Source of the DNA: a virus
Lineage: Duplodnaviria > Caudoviricetes
DNA length: 64,000 nucleotides
Virus record (IMG/VR): IMGVR_UViG_3300029288_007089
Coordinates: 8,654 to 72,653 of that record
Reading direction: 5' to 3' (one strand)
The notes under the pieces are model-generated. The model worked only from the letters and a program-made list of their open reading frames with translations, did not search any database and was not told the origin of the DNA. Positions 7,822 to 61,195 of this stretch are shown here, one piece after another; position 1 is the first letter of the stretch; each line of letters opens with the position of its first letter. Position numbers and translations under genes: made by a program.

Positions 7822-8978
7822 GCCGCTTTCCACCCTTCCAGCGCCCGCTCCGCAATCACGCGCAGCACGGGCATGGCGTATTTGCCGATCACGTAGTCGA
7901 TGTCATAGTCGCGCGCGCCCTCAATCGCGCGCCGCCGGCGCTCCGGGTCGCCGCGCTCCAAATACGCCGCCTCCAGCGTCTCAACGATTGACGCAATACT
8001 GGGGCCAATCCAGAAGGCGTTTTGTTCGCTCCACTCCGGATCGCCCTCCACGAGCCAGCCGCTAAAGTTCAATTCTTTCTGCGCGCCGAAGTCGGTAGTG
8101 ATGACGGGGCAGCCGGCGCGCTGGAATTCGAGCACCGGCAGGCCAAAGCCCTCACCCCGGCTCGGCGCAATGAGCACATCGCTCGCCTGCGCCAGCGTCG
8201 CCAGTTCGCGCGCCGGGATGCCGGTGCGGTACCGGTACTGGTCGGCAATGCGCACGCGCTGTGGGTCGAGGCCGAGCGTCTTGATGATAACCGGGATGTT
8301 GACGCCGCCGAATACCGACGTGAGCAGGTTGCCCGTCTCAGACGTGTGCAGGTACAACATGGCGTCGGGGTACGTCTGCGCGAACATCTGCCACGCCACC
8401 AGCAACTCAGGGATGCCCTTCCTGCTTGGCACGCTGTCGTTGACGCCCACGAAGGACACGAGAAACACATCATCGGCCAGTCCCAGCGCCTTGCGTGCGG
8501 CGCGGCGGTCGCCGGGCTGCCACACCGCCGGGTCAACGCCGTGCGGCAGGTAGTAGCTCTCATGGCCGGCTACGCGCAGTTGCCGCTCGCCCCAACGTGT
8601 AAGCGCAATCGGCGCGCGGCACGCCGCCAGCGCGTTTGTCACCCGTTCCGGCACGGGCTGGCGATCAATGGGTGTGATGGGATACCAGGGCATGTGGCGC
8701 ATGATTTCGGGGTTCAGTCCCCAGGCGTCGATGAGAGAGATTGCCGCGTCGGCGCGGAAGTGCGCCGCGTGCCCGTGAATAATGTCGCTGCCCAGTGGGT
8801 CGAGCGCCGGCGGGAGCACCTTGACGCCTTCGACCAGCGCCGGCAGGCTGCCTGCGCCGATGCCCAAATTGAACACGGCGACCTCGTGCCCCAGGCGCTT
8901 CAGGCGCGGCACGAAAAGGCGCGACTGGATGCTATAGCCGGACTGCGAGGTGAAGTTAGCCGCCCAGAGTATGCGCAA
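7818..8978 (-). CDS. Glycosyltransferase family 4
   Basis: RKGIPELL, SDVLIAPSRGEGFGLPVLEFQRAGCPVITT; TTG start. Confidence 0.92.
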   Translation of the reverse strand: MRILWAANFTSQSGYSIQSRLFVPRLKRLGHEVAVFNLGIGAGSLPALVEGVKVLPPALDPLGSDIIHGHAAHFRADAAISLIDAWGLNPEIMRHMPWYPITPIDRQPVPERVTNALAACRAPIALTRWGERQLRVAGHESYYLPHGVDPAVWQPGDRRAARKALGLADDVFLVSFVGVNDSVPSRKGIPELLVAWQMFAQTYPDAMLYLHTSETGNLLTSVFGGVNIPVIIKTLGLDPQRVRIADQYRYRTGIPARELATLAQASDVLIAPSRGEGFGLPVLEFQRAGCPVITTDFGAQKELNFSGWLVEGDPEWSEQNAFWIGPSIASIVETLEAAYLERGDPERRRRAIEGARDYDIDYVIGKYAMPVLRVIAERALEGWKAA

Positions 8979-9300
8979 TTGTGTCGCCTCCCAACGTCCA
9001 ACCGCATTCGGGGCACCGGATGATGCCAGGGTTGTTGTGTTCGTCTACGTTCGTGAGCGCCGCGCCGCAACGCGGGCAGGTATCGGAGATGGATAAATCG
9101 CCGGCTAGTGAACTTACCAAGCGCGGCGGCGACGGTACCCACGGCGGTGGCGGCATCATCCGTCCCTCCCGCCACGCCTCGCACGCCTTGACGACAATGT
9201 AGGACACGCTGCGGTCGTCACGCGCGGCTTCCGCTTCCAGCCACGCCAGCAGGTCGTCGGGGAAGGATATGCCTCTTGCGGTCGTTGTGCGTTTGCTCAT
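8956..9300 (-). CDS. Ribbon-helix-helix (Arc/CopG-like) protein with C-terminal Zn ribbon
   Basis: GISFPDDLLAWLEAEAARDDRSVSYIV; CPRCG...CPECG. Confidence 0.7.
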   Translation of the reverse strand: MSKRTTTARGISFPDDLLAWLEAEAARDDRSVSYIVVKACEAWREGRMMPPPPWVPSPPRLVSSLAGDLSISDTCPRCGAALTNVDEHNNPGIIRCPECGWTLGGDTIAHTLGG

Positions 9301-9403
9301 TATAGACAAAGCGCCCACTGCACTTACTGCCGGCGGGCGCTCACGGGCGCACAGATGTTCAAGTCACAGTGTAGCACGGAATTGCAGCGCGTGCAAGTCA
9401 CAG

Positions 9404-9579
9404 GTCACGGTGCGCTATTCTGAGATTCGCCCACTGCAACTGCAGCACAGAACCACACCTCGGCGGGATGTCACAGTGCGCTATTCTGAGATTCGCCCAC
9501 TGCAACTTTTGCGCAACATCCTCAGGCAGAAACACAGTGCAGGTCACAGTGCGCTATTCTGAGATTCGCCCACTGCAAC
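9404..9579 (-). CRISPR. Mini CRISPR array A: 3 repeats of 37 nt (GTTGCAGTGGGCGAATCTCAGAATAGCGCACTGTGAC), 2 spacers
   Basis: Repeats at 9543-9579, 9470-9506 and 9404-9440 (last with 1 mismatch); spacers 36 nt (9507-9542) and 29 nt (9441-9469); directly downstream of a RuvC effector gene. Confidence 0.92.
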
Positions 9580-9727
9580 CCCAGTTGCAGTGCCGTGCAA
9601 AGCACGGAGTTCGGTCCAAAGCCGCCGCTAGTGGCGCGTTTTGACGCGCCAGGAACGCCGGGCGTCCCGTCTGGTCTTACGCGCGGCCCCAGGCCCAGGA
9701 TGTGTGACTGCATCCTGTTCTCAAACC
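9580..9727 (-). ncRNA. tracr/omegaRNA-like scaffold fused to first repeat of array A
   Basis: Hairpin CAGGATG-CAGTCACA-CATCCTG, hairpin CCGTGC-TTT-GCACGG, anti-repeat CACTGCAAC (9584-9592) four nt from the repeat start; homologues at 46.6 and 59.8 kb show compensatory changes. Confidence 0.8.
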
Positions 9728-11149
9728 TCATTTGGTTGTTAAAGTACTGACGTTTGCGAAACTACGATGGAACTCCCGATAACCTCCCTCCCAGTCTGCC
9801 TTGCGGTACAGCGCGCGGCGCGCAATGTTCACCGCCGCGTTGTCGTCAGAGTGGCCGGCATAACCGCACGCGCCGCAAGTCACACTGCGGTCGTCGCGGT
9901 CCATGTCCGCGCCGCACTTGTGGCAGATCACCGAACTATAGGCGGCGAACACGCGCCGGAACGGGACGCCGGCCAGCTTGCACTTGTACTCCAGGATACG
10001 GTCGAGCTTGCGGAACCGGCTCACCACGCGCCCACCGCGTACCTGCACGTTGAGGTCTTCGACCACGATGCCGGCCTGCGCATTCTGCGCCGCGCCGATC
10101 AGCGTATTGGCGAGCGTGTGCAGGATGTTGTCGTAGGCCTTCTGTTTGTAGTGACGCTTGGTGATCTTCTGCCCGTTGCGCGCCAGTTGTTCGCGTTCCT
10201 TGCCGTGCTTAAGCTGAAGCGCGCGTAAGTCATCGTCGAAGTGCCCCATCTCCAGCACCGCGCCGGTCCCGTCCACGAGCGCATACGCGGCGGTGTACAG
10301 GATGCCCTTGTCGATGCCCAGGTACGCCGCCGGCTCGTAAACGTCGGGGCACTCAACCTCAAACGTGACGTGCAGCGCATAGCCGGCGTCGCGCTTCACC
10401 AGGAACGCCGCCTTCACGCGCCCCGCCCCGTCGCGGCTCGGCTGCAAGAATTTCGCCTCGTGCCAGCCGTTGCGCCCGATCTCCAACGGCACAAGAATTG
10501 CCGAGGCGCTATTGCTCTTGAATACCTCGCCGGTATCCAGGCGCACAAGATTATCTGCGCTTGCGCCGATGGGCCTTGTCAGTTCATGGCCCTTCGGTAG
10601 CAACCACAGCGCCGCGATAAGCTGGCGCTTTTGTGTGTTCCACAAAAGAGAGAAAAGGCGATTTCGTGCCGCACCATCTGCCCCGCAGAAATAGAGTGGC
10701 ATGTATTGGCCGCGCATCCGCATGAGCATGAGGTTGCGCGCTTCGTTGTAGTCGGCTTCGTCGCCGCCTACAAGAACGAAGTCATCAAGCGCATTGTCCA
10801 CCGCGTCGGGTGCGGGATCGCGCCCTACCGGAAAGCCGGTTGCGCCGGCCATGCCATCGAGCGCATAGTAAGATGCGAGGTTACCAGCCACGTCCACAAG
10901 TAGGCTGTCTTTGGCGCTGGTGTGTAGTGCGGCATTGGGGCGCGGCAGGAGCGACATTATGGCCTTGCCGTTGTACTTGTCGCGGTACATGCCCTGTTCG
11001 CGCAACAAGTCGTCATTGTCGCGCGCCCAGTCCAACATAGCTTGATATGCCAGCGTGTATTCACGCAGTGCGTGATCCATCACCGCCGTTTTATGCGCGG
11101 AGGGATTGTGGACTTTGAAAATGCAGGTTAGGTGGATAGAATTGCTCAT
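9728..11149 (-). CDS. Compact type V effector, TnpB/Cas12f-like RNA-guided nuclease (473 aa)
   Basis: RuvC-I YLGIDKG, RuvC-II IVVEDL, Zn finger CHKCG...CGACG, RuvC-III HSDDNAAVNIA; adjacent CRISPR array; start MSNSIHL at 11149. Confidence 0.88.
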   Translation of the reverse strand: MSNSIHLTCIFKVHNPSAHKTAVMDHALREYTLAYQAMLDWARDNDDLLREQGMYRDKYNGKAIMSLLPRPNAALHTSAKDSLLVDVAGNLASYYALDGMAGATGFPVGRDPAPDAVDNALDDFVLVGGDEADYNEARNLMLMRMRGQYMPLYFCGADGAARNRLFSLLWNTQKRQLIAALWLLPKGHELTRPIGASADNLVRLDTGEVFKSNSASAILVPLEIGRNGWHEAKFLQPSRDGAGRVKAAFLVKRDAGYALHVTFEVECPDVYEPAAYLGIDKGILYTAAYALVDGTGAVLEMGHFDDDLRALQLKHGKEREQLARNGQKITKRHYKQKAYDNILHTLANTLIGAAQNAQAGIVVEDLNVQVRGGRVVSRFRKLDRILEYKCKLAGVPFRRVFAAYSSVICHKCGADMDRDDRSVTCGACGYAGHSDDNAAVNIARRALYRKADWEGGYREFHRSFANVSTLTTK

Positions 11150-11265
11150 GCTCTGACTCTCGGTAGTCGGAGGGCCGGTGGGCGTTGCTGCGCCGCGACC
11201 GGCACCGCGCATTACTATAGCACAAATGGTCTGACTGCGCAAATAGATTCTGTGGTATACTCTAA

Positions 11266-11437
11266 GTGGCGGATGATCCGGCCACCCGACCGTAACCAGC
11301 CGGCGCTGAACCGGGTGTATCCCCCGCATAAATCCACACCATCAACGAACTGCGATGGGAGCAAATCGCCTTAGTGGTGACGGGGGCCTCCGCTATATGA
11401 TGGGCACCATCAATGTAGATGGTGCCCATTCTTTTTT
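11266..11437 (+). ncRNA. Putative structured small RNA divergent from the type V gene, ending in an intrinsic terminator
   Basis: TGGTATACT -10-like box near 11254, nested complementary segments, terminator 11400-11437. Confidence 0.4.
11400..11437 (+). terminator. Intrinsic terminator
   Basis: ATGGGCACCATC-aatgta-GATGGTGCCCAT followed by TCTTTTTT. Confidence 0.8.
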
Positions 11438-11438
11438 G

Positions 11439-11795
11439 CTATCCCTTCACCGGCAGGATAAAGCTCACCCCGCTCGCCTGCGCGATGCTGCTCTTGATCT
11501 TCACGTACCGGTATGGCGCGATGCAACTCAGGTCGTCGCCGGTCAGCGCAAATGTGCCGCTCACCGGGCCAAAGCTCTTATCGTCGCCGTCGGTGTTCTT
11601 CACGTCAACGTAAGTGCCGCCGCCGGCGTCCGGCAAGTGCGACACCTGAAACGTGATCGTGCCGTTGGTGAACGACGTGGCGGCGATGAGGCCGAGCACG
11701 CCGTACTCGCCGGTGTCGATCTCACTGGACAGCGTGCCGCCGGGCAGGATCGTGCCGTTCAGCACCGCCGGGCGGTGTCCGATGATGCGCGTCAT
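11439..11795 (-). CDS. Virion structural protein (capsid-associated, putative)
   Basis: 118 aa, beta-rich composition, GGAGG RBS, downstream of capsid and decoration genes. Confidence 0.55.
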   Translation of the reverse strand: MTRIIGHRPAVLNGTILPGGTLSSEIDTGEYGVLGLIAATSFTNGTITFQVSHLPDAGGGTYVDVKNTDGDDKSFGPVSGTFALTGDDLSCIAPYRYVKIKSSIAQASGVSFILPVKG

Positions 11796-58685: not shown

Positions 58686-59224
58686 GGCCCAAAGTCAATA
58701 AACGGGCAACCTGTCGTGTCAACCGCTGCCATGACCCAGCCGGCTATGTAGCCCACCGCAAAGCCCCGGTCGTCGAGCGCGCGCAGCCACATGCTACCCG
58801 TCGCGTCACGGTGCCCCTCGCTGACGGCAACCACCTGCCCGATTTGCACCTGTTGTCCCGTGAGCGCGCCGCCGATGTCCGGCAAGCTGCGAACGTTGAC
58901 GCGATACGCACCGCCGGGCCGCACCGTGCAGGGCTGCGAGAAGAACAGCACGTCGCTTTCCGGCGTGGGCGTCGGAGTTAATGTCGGCGTCGGGAACGGC
59001 GTCCACGTCGCGGTGGGCATCGGCGTCACACTTGGCGTTGCGGTTGCGGTGCTCGTGGCCGTCGGCGTCGGCGTTACTGTCGCGCCGGGGCACGGGATGG
59101 GCACAAGCTCCAACACGCCGGCGCGGTAATACACCGCCACGCACAGCAGCGGCGGCGCTTCCTGCGCAACCGCCAGCGCCGGCAGGAGCAGGAGCAGTGC
59201 AAGTAACAGCAATAACCGCTTCAT
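58682..59224 (-). CDS. Exported protein with Pro/Thr repeats and SH3b-like domain
   Basis: Signal peptide MKRLLLLL, TPTPTAT repeats, VNVRSLP...GYIAGW. Confidence 0.65.
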   Translation of the reverse strand: MKRLLLLLALLLLLPALAVAQEAPPLLCVAVYYRAGVLELVPIPCPGATVTPTPTATSTATATPSVTPMPTATWTPFPTPTLTPTPTPESDVLFFSQPCTVRPGGAYRVNVRSLPDIGGALTGQQVQIGQVVAVSEGHRDATGSMWLRALDDRGFAVGYIAGWVMAAVDTTGCPFIDFGP

Positions 59225-59598
59225 GCCTCACCTCGTTTATAAAACAGCGCCGCCAGGACCAGCTGCACGAACGGCGACACCGCGCCCGCACCCAGCGCGC
59301 CGGCCAGCGCGATGGTGATCTCTACCTGGTGGTAGAGTAAGAACACCAGCACCGACAGGCCCACCGCGAACGCCACGCCCGCGCGCAGCGCGTCCACGTC
59401 GGCGCGCAGCTTTTTGATGCTATGCCGCGTCTCCCGCGCTTCTTTCAGGCCGTAAATCTGCGCCGCGAACCGCAACTGCGCCTGCACGTCCGGCGACAGG
59501 CGGTTGTGCAGTTCCACGAACTGGCGCACGTCGATGCCATTGCTGATGCCGGCTTCGAATTCGGCCATTGCCTCAAAGAGCGTCACGTCGTCTGCCAT
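59221..59598 (-). CDS. Membrane protein (lysis module, putative)
   Basis: Coiled-coil N-terminus and two C-terminal TM segments. Confidence 0.55.
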   Translation of the reverse strand: MADDVTLFEAMAEFEAGISNGIDVRQFVELHNRLSPDVQAQLRFAAQIYGLKEARETRHSIKKLRADVDALRAGVAFAVGLSVLVFLLYHQVEITIALAGALGAGAVSPFVQLVLAALFYKRGEA

Positions 59599-59763
59599 GT
59601 TGCCTATCTCCCGCCTTTAGTCCGAGTTTCTAACCTTCTCGCCTTCACGTTCTTCACAATTCGTGCTACGCTATCTCTGGCGCGGGTGTGGGCTGCTCCC
59701 GCCGCCCGCGCCTGTGCCCGGCCCCGGCTGTTCACGCAGTCGGGGCTTGCTTGTGCTGAATTC

Positions 59764-59792
59764 TTGTCGCCTGCATTTACATTCGCTATACT
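59764..59792 (+). promoter_or_regulatory. Promoter for the stand-alone scaffold RNA
   Basis: TTGTCG(59764-69)-17-TATACT(59787-92), about 12 nt before the first scaffold hairpin. Confidence 0.6.
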
Positions 59793-59804
59793 CTCACTGT
59801 CTAT

Positions 59805-59946
59805 GGGATGCAGTCACACATCCCTGGCCTGCGATCGCCCGCGTCCGTGGCGACGGTTGCGGACCGAACTCCGCGCTTTGCGCGGCTTCCCCAAAAGGGG
59901 AGACAATGTGATGTGCCCTGGCCCCCGTCGTTCACGCGGCGGGGGC
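59805..59946 (+). ncRNA. Third, minimized copy of the guide scaffold
   Basis: GGGATG-CAGTCACA-CATCCC, GGACCGAACTCCGCGC-TTT-GCGCGG, TGTGAT at 59907-59912, then a short tail and a GC hairpin. Confidence 0.75.
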
Positions 59947-59950
59947 TTGC

Positions 59951-61195
59951 TTACAACGTCTCCAGTATCCACGCGCCGAAGCGCGCGGAGAATACCTGCC
60001 CGACGAACGGCGTCTCGAAGCCGATAGGTGCAGGCGTCGTCCAGTCTGTCATCGGCACCGTCAGCATCCCGTCCACAACTGCGATGTCCTGGTATTCGTC
60101 ATCCCACAGCATCGGGTTGCGCACGCGCACCGTACCGCTCTCCGCCAGCGCCGACACGTCCACCGCCACCGCGCCGGTCTCGTCGAAGTCGAAAACCGTG
60201 AGCGAGGCAAACCCCGGCGCGTACTCGTTCGGCACGAAATTGGTAAACTGCCCGGTGGTTGTGGCGACGACCTCCTGAATGTCGTAGACGCCGCCGGGCA
60301 GCTCGATATTGGTCCAGTCGTCCACCGTGAACACGTTGCCCGTCACCGTCGCCTGCTCCCAACGCTTCAGGTAGAACGCCTCCGCGCCGTAGGGATCGTG
60401 CAGATACGGGTCGATCACGCAGTCCTTTATCAGCGCGACGCCGTTGATCGCCACCTCATCCTCCTGGATATACAGACCCAGGCATGGATGGCCGTTGTGG
60501 ATGAACAGGCGTTCCACGCTCAAGTTTTTATTGAATCGATTGCCAGAGGTGAACGCGCGGTTGGCGACCGTAATGTCCTCGAAGACGAACGTGCCATAGC
60601 ACCAGTCGCCCGCGCCAACCTGTACATGCCGAAACGAGTTAAGAAACAGGCAGTTGCGGAACGTCTTCGTGTCCGCCGCGTCGGTGCAGGATGTGTAGAC
60701 ACTTGGTCCGTGCGGGCGGTCGCTGCCCACCCAGCCGTTGTCCGTGATGACGACGCCGTAGGCCTGCCCGCCGCCGTTGAGGAACCACGAGATGCCCGTG
60801 CCCGGCACGTTGTGGATGCGCACGTTGATGAACTCCATACCGGGGATGTTGTTGGCGTAGAGGCCGGAGTGCTGCCCCGGCACGGTCGGCGTCTCCGTGC
60901 TCGTGCGCTCCGTGAGCGTGTCGTCGATGATGAGGCCGTAATCCTCAGACAGCCAGCGCACGTAACCGCCAGACGGTTGTTGCACCACGTCGCCGCGCAG
61001 CACCGCTATCTCGCCGGGGTAGTTGCGTATGGTGATCGGCTCATCCGGCGTGCCTTGCAGCGTGCAGGATAGCGCCGTCTCCAGGTCGTACACCCCGCCG
61101 CGCAGGTAGACCGTGTGCCCCGACTGGATGTCCGGCCAGGACATGCCGGTGCGGATGTCGAAGGGAAACTCCTTGCTGCCGTTGCCGAGGATCAT
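59951..61195 (-). CDS. Right-handed beta-helix (pectin-lyase-like) tail/depolymerase protein
   Basis: G.TVYLRGGVY, GTPDEPITIRNYPGE, INVRIHN, HGPSVY repeats. Confidence 0.75.
   Translation of the reverse strand: MILGNGSKEFPFDIRTGMSWPDIQSGHTVYLRGGVYDLETALSCTLQGTPDEPITIRNYPGEIAVLRGDVVQQPSGGYVRWLSEDYGLIIDDTLTERTSTETPTVPGQHSGLYANNIPGMEFINVRIHNVPGTGISWFLNGGGQAYGVVITDNGWVGSDRPHGPSVYTSCTDAADTKTFRNCLFLNSFRHVQVGAGDWCYGTFVFEDITVANRAFTSGNRFNKNLSVERLFIHNGHPCLGLYIQEDEVAINGVALIKDCVIDPYLHDPYGAEAFYLKRWEQATVTGNVFTVDDWTNIELPGGVYDIQEVVATTTGQFTNFVPNEYAPGFASLTVFDFDETGAVAVDVSALAESGTVRVRNPMLWDDEYQDIAVVDGMLTVPMTDWTTPAPIGFETPFVGQVFSARFGAWILETL

Follow-up and report, generated by a model that had tools for sequence, protein, structure and literature searches.

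A temperate phage is the carrier of a small promoter-driven cassette (copy 3) that probably encodes a functional one-piece guide RNA acting in trans with the phage's own nuclease, in the manner of stand-alone omega-RNAs, with sibling-phage alleles of the hairpin sequence that follows the scaffold as its proposed target. The DNA that was analysed, referred to here as the window, is a stretch of 64,000 nucleotides comprising bases 8654-72653 of the 72.6-kb (72,653-base) IMG/VR provirus record IMGVR_UViG_3300029288_007089. All comparative data come from metagenomic contigs, which are either nuclease loci (numbered with L) or sequencing runs (numbered with X). The features discussed below are collected in Table 1.

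Anatomy and gene context of the cassette

The first-pass annotation of this DNA had recognized a third, stand-alone scaffold with its own promoter, and all the elements that it listed are in place (Table 1). The promoter is the only promoter-like site between positions 59000 and 60400, where 0.2 would be expected from shuffled sequences; its consensus is that of sigma-70, which may not be that of the host. Transcription is predicted to start near 59799, 6 nt before stem-loop 1, and the -10 box lies 12 nt before this stem-loop in the window and 7-9 nt before it in five other loci with a mini or a scaffold, that is, 7-12 nt across the six promoter-bearing loci. When aligned with copies 1 and 2, copy 3 is found to be without about 65 nt of the central domain, without the anti-repeat, and without the repeat except for its last 10 nt or so. 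As it has neither the repeat:anti-repeat duplex nor about 27 nt of the 37-nt repeat, it can form neither a crRNA:tracrRNA dual guide nor the fused form of copy 1. The alignments also bear out the earlier description of a duplex replaced by the short TCCCC-AAAA-GGGGA hairpin, the last six scaffold bases can indeed pair with GTCACA through a G-U (GUCACA/UGUGAU, one G-U pair), and the roughly 8 nt said to precede a strong hairpin are the free bases GTGCCCTG, which are followed by a 12-bp stem. The 60-nt tail after the scaffold folds with -26.3 kcal/mol, and the whole mini RNA has a fold z-score of -3.5.

Table 1. Positions of the guide-RNA features in the window and of the minis in other nuclease loci
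Feature	Contig	Coordinates	Strand	Description
Cognate nuclease gene	Window	9728-11149	-	473 aa, TnpB-derived, Cas12f-like; RuvC D/E/D and zinc finger conserved
Copy 1	Window	scaffold 9543-9736; with array 9401-9736	-	Full scaffold joined to repeat 1 of a CRISPR array with three 37-nt repeats; 181.9 bits
Copy 2	Window	scaffold 46549-46741; whole 46420-46741	+	Remnant of nuclease-gene 3' end, full scaffold and one repeat; 170.7 bits
Leader before hairpin A	Window	59644-59712	+	Homolog of the trailer that follows the copy 1 array (alignment A7)
Hairpin A	Window	59714-59752	+	Diverged direct copy (paralog) of hairpin B, just upstream of the promoter
Copy 3 (mini cassette)	Window	59764-59952	+	Promoter, mini scaffold, guide and hairpin B
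Promoter	Window	59764-59792	+	TTGTCG-17-TATACT; sigma-70-like
Mini scaffold	Window	59798-59912	+	116 nt; fold, covariance-model match of 91.8 bits, alignments A3 and A6, covariation counts
Closing helix	Window	59798-59802 with 59901-59905	+	UGUCU/AGACA, re-paired with new bases
Stem-loop 1	Window	59805-59824	+	GGGATG-CAGTCACA-CATCCC (RNA loop CAGUCACA), then TGGCCT
Central helix	Window	59825-59866	+	Shortened; from fold
GAAC, then hairpin	Window	59871-59885	+	RNA CCGCGC-UUU-GCGCGG; DNA GGACCGAACTCCGCGC-TTT-GCGCGG, ends at 59885
Small hairpin	Window	59888-59901	+	UCCCC-AAAA-GGGGA, 4-5 bp, in place of the repeat:anti-repeat duplex
Pseudoknot 3' strand	Window	59907-59912	+	UGUGAU, last six scaffold bases; scaffold ends ...ACAAUGUGAU at 59912
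Free guide bases	Window	59913-59920	+	8 nt (RNA GUGCCCUG), unpaired in the predicted fold
Hairpin B	Window	59914-59952	+	Terminator-like; 12-bp GC-rich stem with predicted loop UCAC, followed by CUUGCUU
Mini	L011	888-719		Promoter TTGACA-17-TATAAT
Mini	L020	382-175		Near-consensus promoter
Mini m3	L059	12951-12824		Promoter TGnTATAAT
Mini	L067	4778-4639		Promoter TTGACA-17-TATAGT; ends GCAATGTGAT like the window mini
Mini	L005	11380-11537		Promoter-less
Mini	L044	450-598		Promoter-less

According to the ORF list, the cassette is flanked by ORFs 59221-59598 and 59951-61195, both on the minus strand, and the mini RNA is antisense to both, in agreement with the first-pass annotation; the 3' end of hairpin B abuts the stop codon of the latter gene. 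A location between tail and lysis genes, as claimed before, was not confirmed on the lysis side: domain searches returned weakly tail-fibre-like matches (Big_12, beta-helix) for the genes upstream of the cassette and no holin or endolysin match for those downstream. Relatives of the 125-aa neighbour were found only within its own cluster. Close relatives in IMG/VR were found neither by protein-pattern scans with the 414-aa neighbour and the nuclease nor by scans with two scaffold patterns. GenBank phages gave no DNA match to the cassette, and the nucleases there are only 27% identical. A TnpA/Y1 transposase (PF01797) is absent from the genome and no RuvC ORF adjoins copy 3. A contig from a metatranscriptome (run X21) covers 59679-59906; with a first base that precedes the predicted transcription start, an end at branch points of the assembly and a possible origin from carried-over DNA, it was discounted as a mini transcript.

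A covarying scaffold family

The likeness to copies 1 and 2, which had been noticed by eye, proved real both by alignment and by a covariance model (R1) that was built in this analysis from the scaffolds of the nuclease clade. Across the full record of 72,653 bases, this model matches three scaffolds and no more, with scores of 181.9, 170.7 and 91.8 bits, the last being copy 3 (E ~1e-21). Rfam gave no match at gathering score in the window. Among 12 sequences, RNAalifold predicts 22 pairs, 18 of them with compensatory changes. For a larger set of 27 aligned scaffolds, to which the pseudoknot was added by hand, 95.7% of the cells are paired versus 75.2% in shuffles and 25-42% in slid controls, and double changes affecting both sides occur in 23 of the 28 pairs.

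Copy 3 retains all four helices that are supported by covariation. Stem-loop 1 with its 8-nt, CAGUNACA-like loop is 96% paired across the 27 scaffolds, with covariation in 7/7 pairs, and the long-range helix that closes the central domain and the CUUUG hairpin, both present in copy 3, are 91% and 100% paired, respectively. The pseudoknot between the loop of stem-loop 1 and the last six scaffold bases, which copy 3 maintains with one G-U pair, is 98% paired in this family and covaries in 4/6 pairs; other covarying sets are GTTACA/TGTAAC, GTTATA/TATAAC, GTTTCA/TGAAAC, GTCTCA/TGAGAC and GCCTCA/TGAGGC.

The cognate nuclease and the full-length scaffolds

The 473-aa nuclease matches Cas12f1-like_TNB in Pfam (1e-17), scores 91.5 bits against guided_TnpB in NCBIfam, under the cut-off of 100, and has TnpB and Cas12f as its best PDB matches. 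Its RuvC residues D340/E424/D495 are invariant in an alignment of 40 homologs (A2), and the protein is apparently active rather than catalytically dead, as judged from these residues. Homologs at E-values up to 0.001 number 73 and are 33-95% identical; at the loci that were fetched, homologous scaffolds lie downstream of the gene. In copy 1 the stop codon of the nuclease gene runs into the scaffold, which measures about 185 nt when counted to the end of the first repeat, and the anti-repeat is joined to the first 37-nt repeat by four bases. Copy 2 sits inside a paralog (46385-46800) of ORF 42891-43337 and is clearly a truncated insertion remnant. The start of this paralog, MNDEELRAA, precedes the insert, the paralog tail LVLAAHAALQAGWLE resumes right after TGTGAC, and the copy is located ~560 nt before a tyrosine integrase gene (47302-48303).

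The ORF directly after the copy 1 array (8956-9318, minus strand) encodes a 120-aa protein with an RHH (CopG-like) domain and a zinc ribbon. Its promoter region and the copy 3 leader have a 16-17-nt motif in common (9368 and 59662), which suggests a common operator or a common origin of the two sequences. Leader and trailer share CAATTC(C)GTGCTACRCT and a GC-rich stretch, with the motif exact only at 9368 and 59662, and the leader also contains the weak promoter-like sequence TTCACG-17-TACGCT.

Other arrays were encountered in the window and in related loci. At 41899-42561, a 129-aa ORF encodes no more of a TnpB than its N-terminal HTH_OrfB_IS605 domain (5.5e-11) and precedes four near-identical repeats of 37-40 nt, spaced 72-74 nt (42302-42561), that are unrelated to the main repeat apart from their GTTGCA start; the region looks like a second, effector-less array. 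The closest relative, L057, with a nuclease that is 95% identical, has two tandem scaffolds at 2231-2655, of which the first is followed by one repeat and a duplicated 3' end of the nuclease gene and then by the second scaffold with its array. In L060 (1514-1800), spacers 2 and 4 of a 5-repeat array are near-identical (35/37 nt), i.e., a spacer has been duplicated. The L017 array contains a self-targeting spacer, number 4, which matches a site on the same contig (44-78, upstream of the nuclease gene) with one mismatch and ATCGCC as 5' flank.

Minis beside related nuclease genes

Promoter-driven minis of the same build are found beside related nuclease genes on at least four other metagenomic contigs (L011, L020, L059 and L067). 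Common to this build are the missing repeat:anti-repeat duplex, a small hairpin in its place, and an end resembling ...AATGTGAY. In L011 the pseudoknot of the mini carries a compensatory change (GTTATA/TATAAC) with respect to the contig's main scaffold. The minis of L011, L020 and L067 lie just upstream of the nuclease operon and are divergent from it, that of L059 lies 1.4 kb downstream, and the distance in the window amounts to 50 kb. A terminator-like hairpin starts 8 nt after the scaffold in the window, ~9 nt after it in L059 m3 and ~12-16 nt after it in L067, so that the short guide recurs in three minis. Judged by sequence, the minis are a recurrent class rather than a one-off product of decay. 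The notion of a natural mini-sgRNA with its own promoter is well supported by all covarying helices, the re-paired closing helix, the four further promoter-driven minis and the presence of the same cassette in another sample (L062).

Several loci show how such elements are arranged in their surroundings. The promoter-less mini of L005 sits as an insert where the nuclease gene ends, immediately ahead of the normal scaffold, and the near-identical contig L058 (1940-1990) is without it, reading ...TTTCGCACGT and then TAACAACTGAG... at the empty site; the two contigs form an occupied/empty pair. In L059, a 22-nt direct repeat, ATGGGARCCGCGCCCCCTCYC, at 9663-9684 and 11529-11550 brackets the whole nuclease module, which consists of a promoter-driven scaffold, repeats, the gene and the trailing mini. 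The m3 mini of this locus has the 9-nt repeat TGTACTCAT both at its own -35 box and at the start of its guide. An apparent antisense match of the L020 mini guide to the 3' end of a tRNA was rejected, as ARAGORN finds no tRNA there.

Cassette boundaries and allelic variation

The window contains this hairpin twice and no more, as A and B, against an expectation of none; the TTCACG centre and the flanks GTGCCC...GGGGCTTGCTT are identical in both, and the stem of hairpin A is re-paired. In the window, hairpin A is without the T at guide position 7 that is present in L062 and L061, and in run X3 a T is inserted behind 59719 in most of the depth. Such a missing seed T is what self-avoidance would predict for a guide reading GTGCCCTGG..., although this is a single case.

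Contig L062 is identical to the window through hairpin A, promoter and scaffold and continues into unrelated coding DNA after ...AATGTGA. Among contigs from four other runs that were compared with the window, one of run X2 departs from the window sequence at 59911 into a third flank, and in run X3 a 1550-nt contig holds 59723-59951 with 3 differences in 229 nt and diverges afterwards. The cassette is thus 100% identical in L062 and has 1 difference in 228 nt in X21, while neighbouring genes are ~5-6% different. Given the different flanks after the scaffold in L062 and X2, the last base of the scaffold is, on the contigs compared, a homology breakpoint between phages, as is the right-hand boundary of elements that carry an omega-RNA. 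Three right flanks occur in all, and the window and L062 agree in their left flank; with this constant left flank and without TnpA, classical transposition is not supported.

Contigs from X19 (59712>59912) and X3 (59725>59936) resemble cassette-less alleles with a single hairpin, with one side of the joint covering only 20-21 nt. These joints are ambiguous because hairpins A and B are alike, and the contigs could be hairpin-A variants of occupied genomes. As read, the putative cassette-less junction is ...CGCGCC followed by TGTGCCCTGGCCCCC..., and a scan for it gave two chance matches that are unrelated to the window. The direct repeats around the L059 nuclease module do not begin at the scaffold end, so an equality of flank and target is not general. 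Taken together, the hairpin paralog, the breakpoint and the possible, ambiguous cassette-less alleles point to omega-RNA-like flank targeting at least as much as to repression.

Searches for guide targets

Beyond its own flank, the first 16 nt of the guide have no match exceeding chance at up to 3 mismatches. A seed of at least 7 nt is missing from the promoter region of the nuclease gene (11150-11400), and the mini guides of L011, L020 and L067 have no matches near their nuclease genes. RNAs of the CreR type, which regulate cas genes, have a short effective guide that pairs, over about 10 nt beside a PAM, with the cas promoter; since none of these nuclease genes has a seed nearby, autorepression in the style of tracr-L or CreR is not supported. 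The exact 10-mer GTGCCCTGGC, comprising the first guide bases, occurs at three further sites in the window (34686 +, 63370 - and 63765 +) where 0.26 would be expected. The length of 10 was picked after inspection of the data, and no shuffle reached 4. All three sites are inside ORFs and have no common 5' flank that could be a PAM. Three IMG/VR spacer scans found no protospacers of close spacers, and a BLAST search with 60 spacers and tails as queries against every locus that was fetched returned only the one self-target in the distant L017, which is too remote to transfer. A common PAM, CCT, derived from hairpin A of the window and the L059 m3 repeat, failed at other sites.

Proposed function and competing explanations

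We propose that 59764-59952 may form a complete small transcription unit that would start at ~59799 and end at hairpin B. Its RNA was most likely re-fused from a tracrRNA and the 3' end of a repeat and has the build of an omega-RNA or reRNA, not that of a crRNA:tracrRNA pair. It would bind in trans the TnpB-derived nuclease (Cas12f-like, TranC-grade) encoded 50 kb away, using as guide the DNA that abuts the scaffold, GUGCCCUG(G...), and runs into hairpin B. The cassette is part of a conserved block of ~270 nt that has other 3' flanks in other phages, so that the guide changes with the junction. In sibling phages, the ribonucleoprotein could then recognize the inter-genic hairpin sequence behind a proper PAM, and alleles recognized in this way would be cut or blocked, resulting in allele exclusion or homing. 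The phage's own junction may be spared by the scaffold end ...AATGTGAT, which stands in the place of the PAM, versus the candidate ...CGCGCC(T) before GTGCCCTGG, and its own hairpin A by the 1-nt deletion in the seed. A strong hairpin ties up 12 of the first 20 guide bases and should hinder R-loop formation, which speaks against the proposal. If the RNA does serve as a guide for the nuclease, such targeting of sibling alleles is the role that we favour, tentatively and at somewhat less than an even chance. A further step, in which the cassette acts as a guide-only gene drive, is improbable: the nuclease, acting in trans, would cut sibling phages at the junction by the tail-fibre-like gene, and repair would copy the cassette in and recombine the host-range module at the last base of the scaffold.

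The main rival to a guide that directs the nuclease to sibling phages is a regulatory short guide, which the first-pass annotation had also considered possible, with repression in place of cutting. About 8-10 accessible guide bases might then allow binding without cutting to partially matching sites, in the manner of tracr-L with Cas9 and of CreR-type RNAs, and thereby tune phage or host transcription, for example that of the late operon; on our analysis this is unlikely, though not negligible. In its favour, three independent minis (those of the window, L059 m3 and L067) have the terminator-like hairpin 8-14 nt beyond the scaffold, the 10-mer occurs three more times in the window besides its guide copy against an expectation of 0.26, and the first 9 guide bases of L059 m3 recur at its own -35 box. 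Against it, the 10-mer test is post hoc and its three sites lie within ORFs without a common PAM-like flank, no seed of at least 7 nt is found at the nuclease promoter here and none near the nuclease genes of L011, L020 and L067, the nuclease has kept its RuvC D/E/D and is not catalytically dead, and L062 combines the same cassette with a wholly different guide.

That copy 3 is a relic, i.e., a decaying scaffold duplicate left as a scar of recombination or of unfinished homing behind a chance promoter-like sequence and without present function, is improbable. Copy 2 of the same genome does provide an example of a truncated insertion remnant, copy 3 is itself without part of the central domain and the repeat, and direct repeats flank it, but all helices are retained, some by re-pairing, the cassette is better conserved (100% in L062, 1/228 nt in X21, 3/229 nt in X3) than its neighbours (~5-6%), and four other loci have this architecture too, again with strong promoters. 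Very improbable is the decoy that had been offered earlier as an alternative, a guide-less scaffold resembling an RNA anti-CRISPR (Racr) that would soak up a rival or host nuclease or buffer the phage's own. A guide largely sequestered in a hairpin and a strong independent promoter would suit it, but since the phage itself encodes the cognate, apparently active nuclease along with a CRISPR array, a decoy would disarm its own system, and the guide-adjacent pseudoknot is maintained. Known Racrs, which are solitary repeat units, mimic CRISPR repeats from systems not used by the phage itself, and most of the repeat is missing in copy 3. We give the least credence of all to an RNA that serves the late operon simply as an antisense or terminator element, pairing with minus-strand mRNA, and for which the likeness to the scaffold is irrelevant: this accords with the full complementarity to a read-through late transcript between genes 59951-61195 and 59221-59598, but leaves unexplained the conservation of scaffold helices and pseudoknot and the minis at other genomic positions.

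Relation to known systems

The one phage genome contains guide RNAs in three states, namely an array-fused scaffold, a single-repeat scaffold in an insertion remnant, and a re-fused, minimal, promoter-driven guide, which bear on the way in which the guides of type V CRISPR systems split from, and can revert to, the omega-RNAs of transposons. If the flank-targeting proposal is true, the homing logic of TnpB would extend to phage competition and module exchange, and if the gene-drive reading is true, an RNA-guided nuclease would be shaping phage mosaicism. In addition, a natural minimal scaffold of 116 nt for a 473-aa nuclease is a candidate compact guide for editing.

Stand-alone omega-RNAs that have no effector beside them are found where a genome also contains OMEGA loci; they function in trans and have no known biological role (Altae-Tran et al., as summarised in PMC10691335), and PATE-like elements often encode omega-RNAs that are used in trans (Meers et al., PMC10055086). 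Like these, copy 3 has no adjacent effector and a compatible nuclease elsewhere in the genome (9728-11149), its guide would be the DNA abutting the 3' end of the scaffold, and the scaffold end is a homology boundary between copies. Unlike OMEGA elements, copy 3 shows no IS200/IS605 ends, TnpA or multi-copy spread; instead, it has a sigma-70-like promoter, a terminator 8 nt into the guide and a temperate phage as carrier, and the nuclease here also uses a CRISPR array.

The omega-RNA of Sigma-TnpB is a Cas12f tracrRNA re-fused to half a repeat (PMC10691335). The mini resembles it as a one-piece RNA that combines a tracrRNA with the 3' portion of a repeat, with the repeat 3' end as scaffold end, but in Sigma-TnpB the nuclease is inactivated and the array lost, whereas here the nuclease looks active, and array, copy 1 and mini coexist. 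Removal of the crRNA:tracrRNA hairpin does not stop Cas12f (PMC10691335), and engineered truncated Cas12f sgRNAs, with the duplex removed and the scaffold shortened, keep their activity according to the work cited in the same source. Those sgRNAs are man-made; by sequence and predicted fold, the mini is their natural counterpart. TranC systems are described as TnpB-Cas12 intermediates, some of them phage-borne, in which the reRNA is split into tracrRNA and crRNA (Jin et al. 2025, via bioRxiv 10.64898/2026.03.27.714800, PMC13565253), and are reported to accept guides of both the reRNA and the CRISPR type. As far as these secondary sources describe them, they share with the present system a nuclease of TnpB to Cas12f size, a small CRISPR array and a tracr-like scaffold, and a separate promoter-driven gene for a one-piece guide beside the array, as seen here, goes unmentioned there.

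The tracr-L of Streptococcus pyogenes Cas9 occurs naturally as a single guide and represses the cas promoter (bioRxiv 10.1101/2020.05.21.102756). Like tracr-L and CreR, the mini is a one-piece guide of natural origin whose effective guide is short, but it is without a match to the nuclease promoter and belongs with a different effector family. It differs from Racrs in that the phage encodes the cognate nuclease and an array and in that most of the repeat is missing. The mini is thus a stand-alone-omega-RNA-like element, set apart by the lack of IS ends and TnpA and by a constant left flank; such elements are known from transposons, and this one occurs in a phage, together with a normal CRISPR array for the same nuclease.
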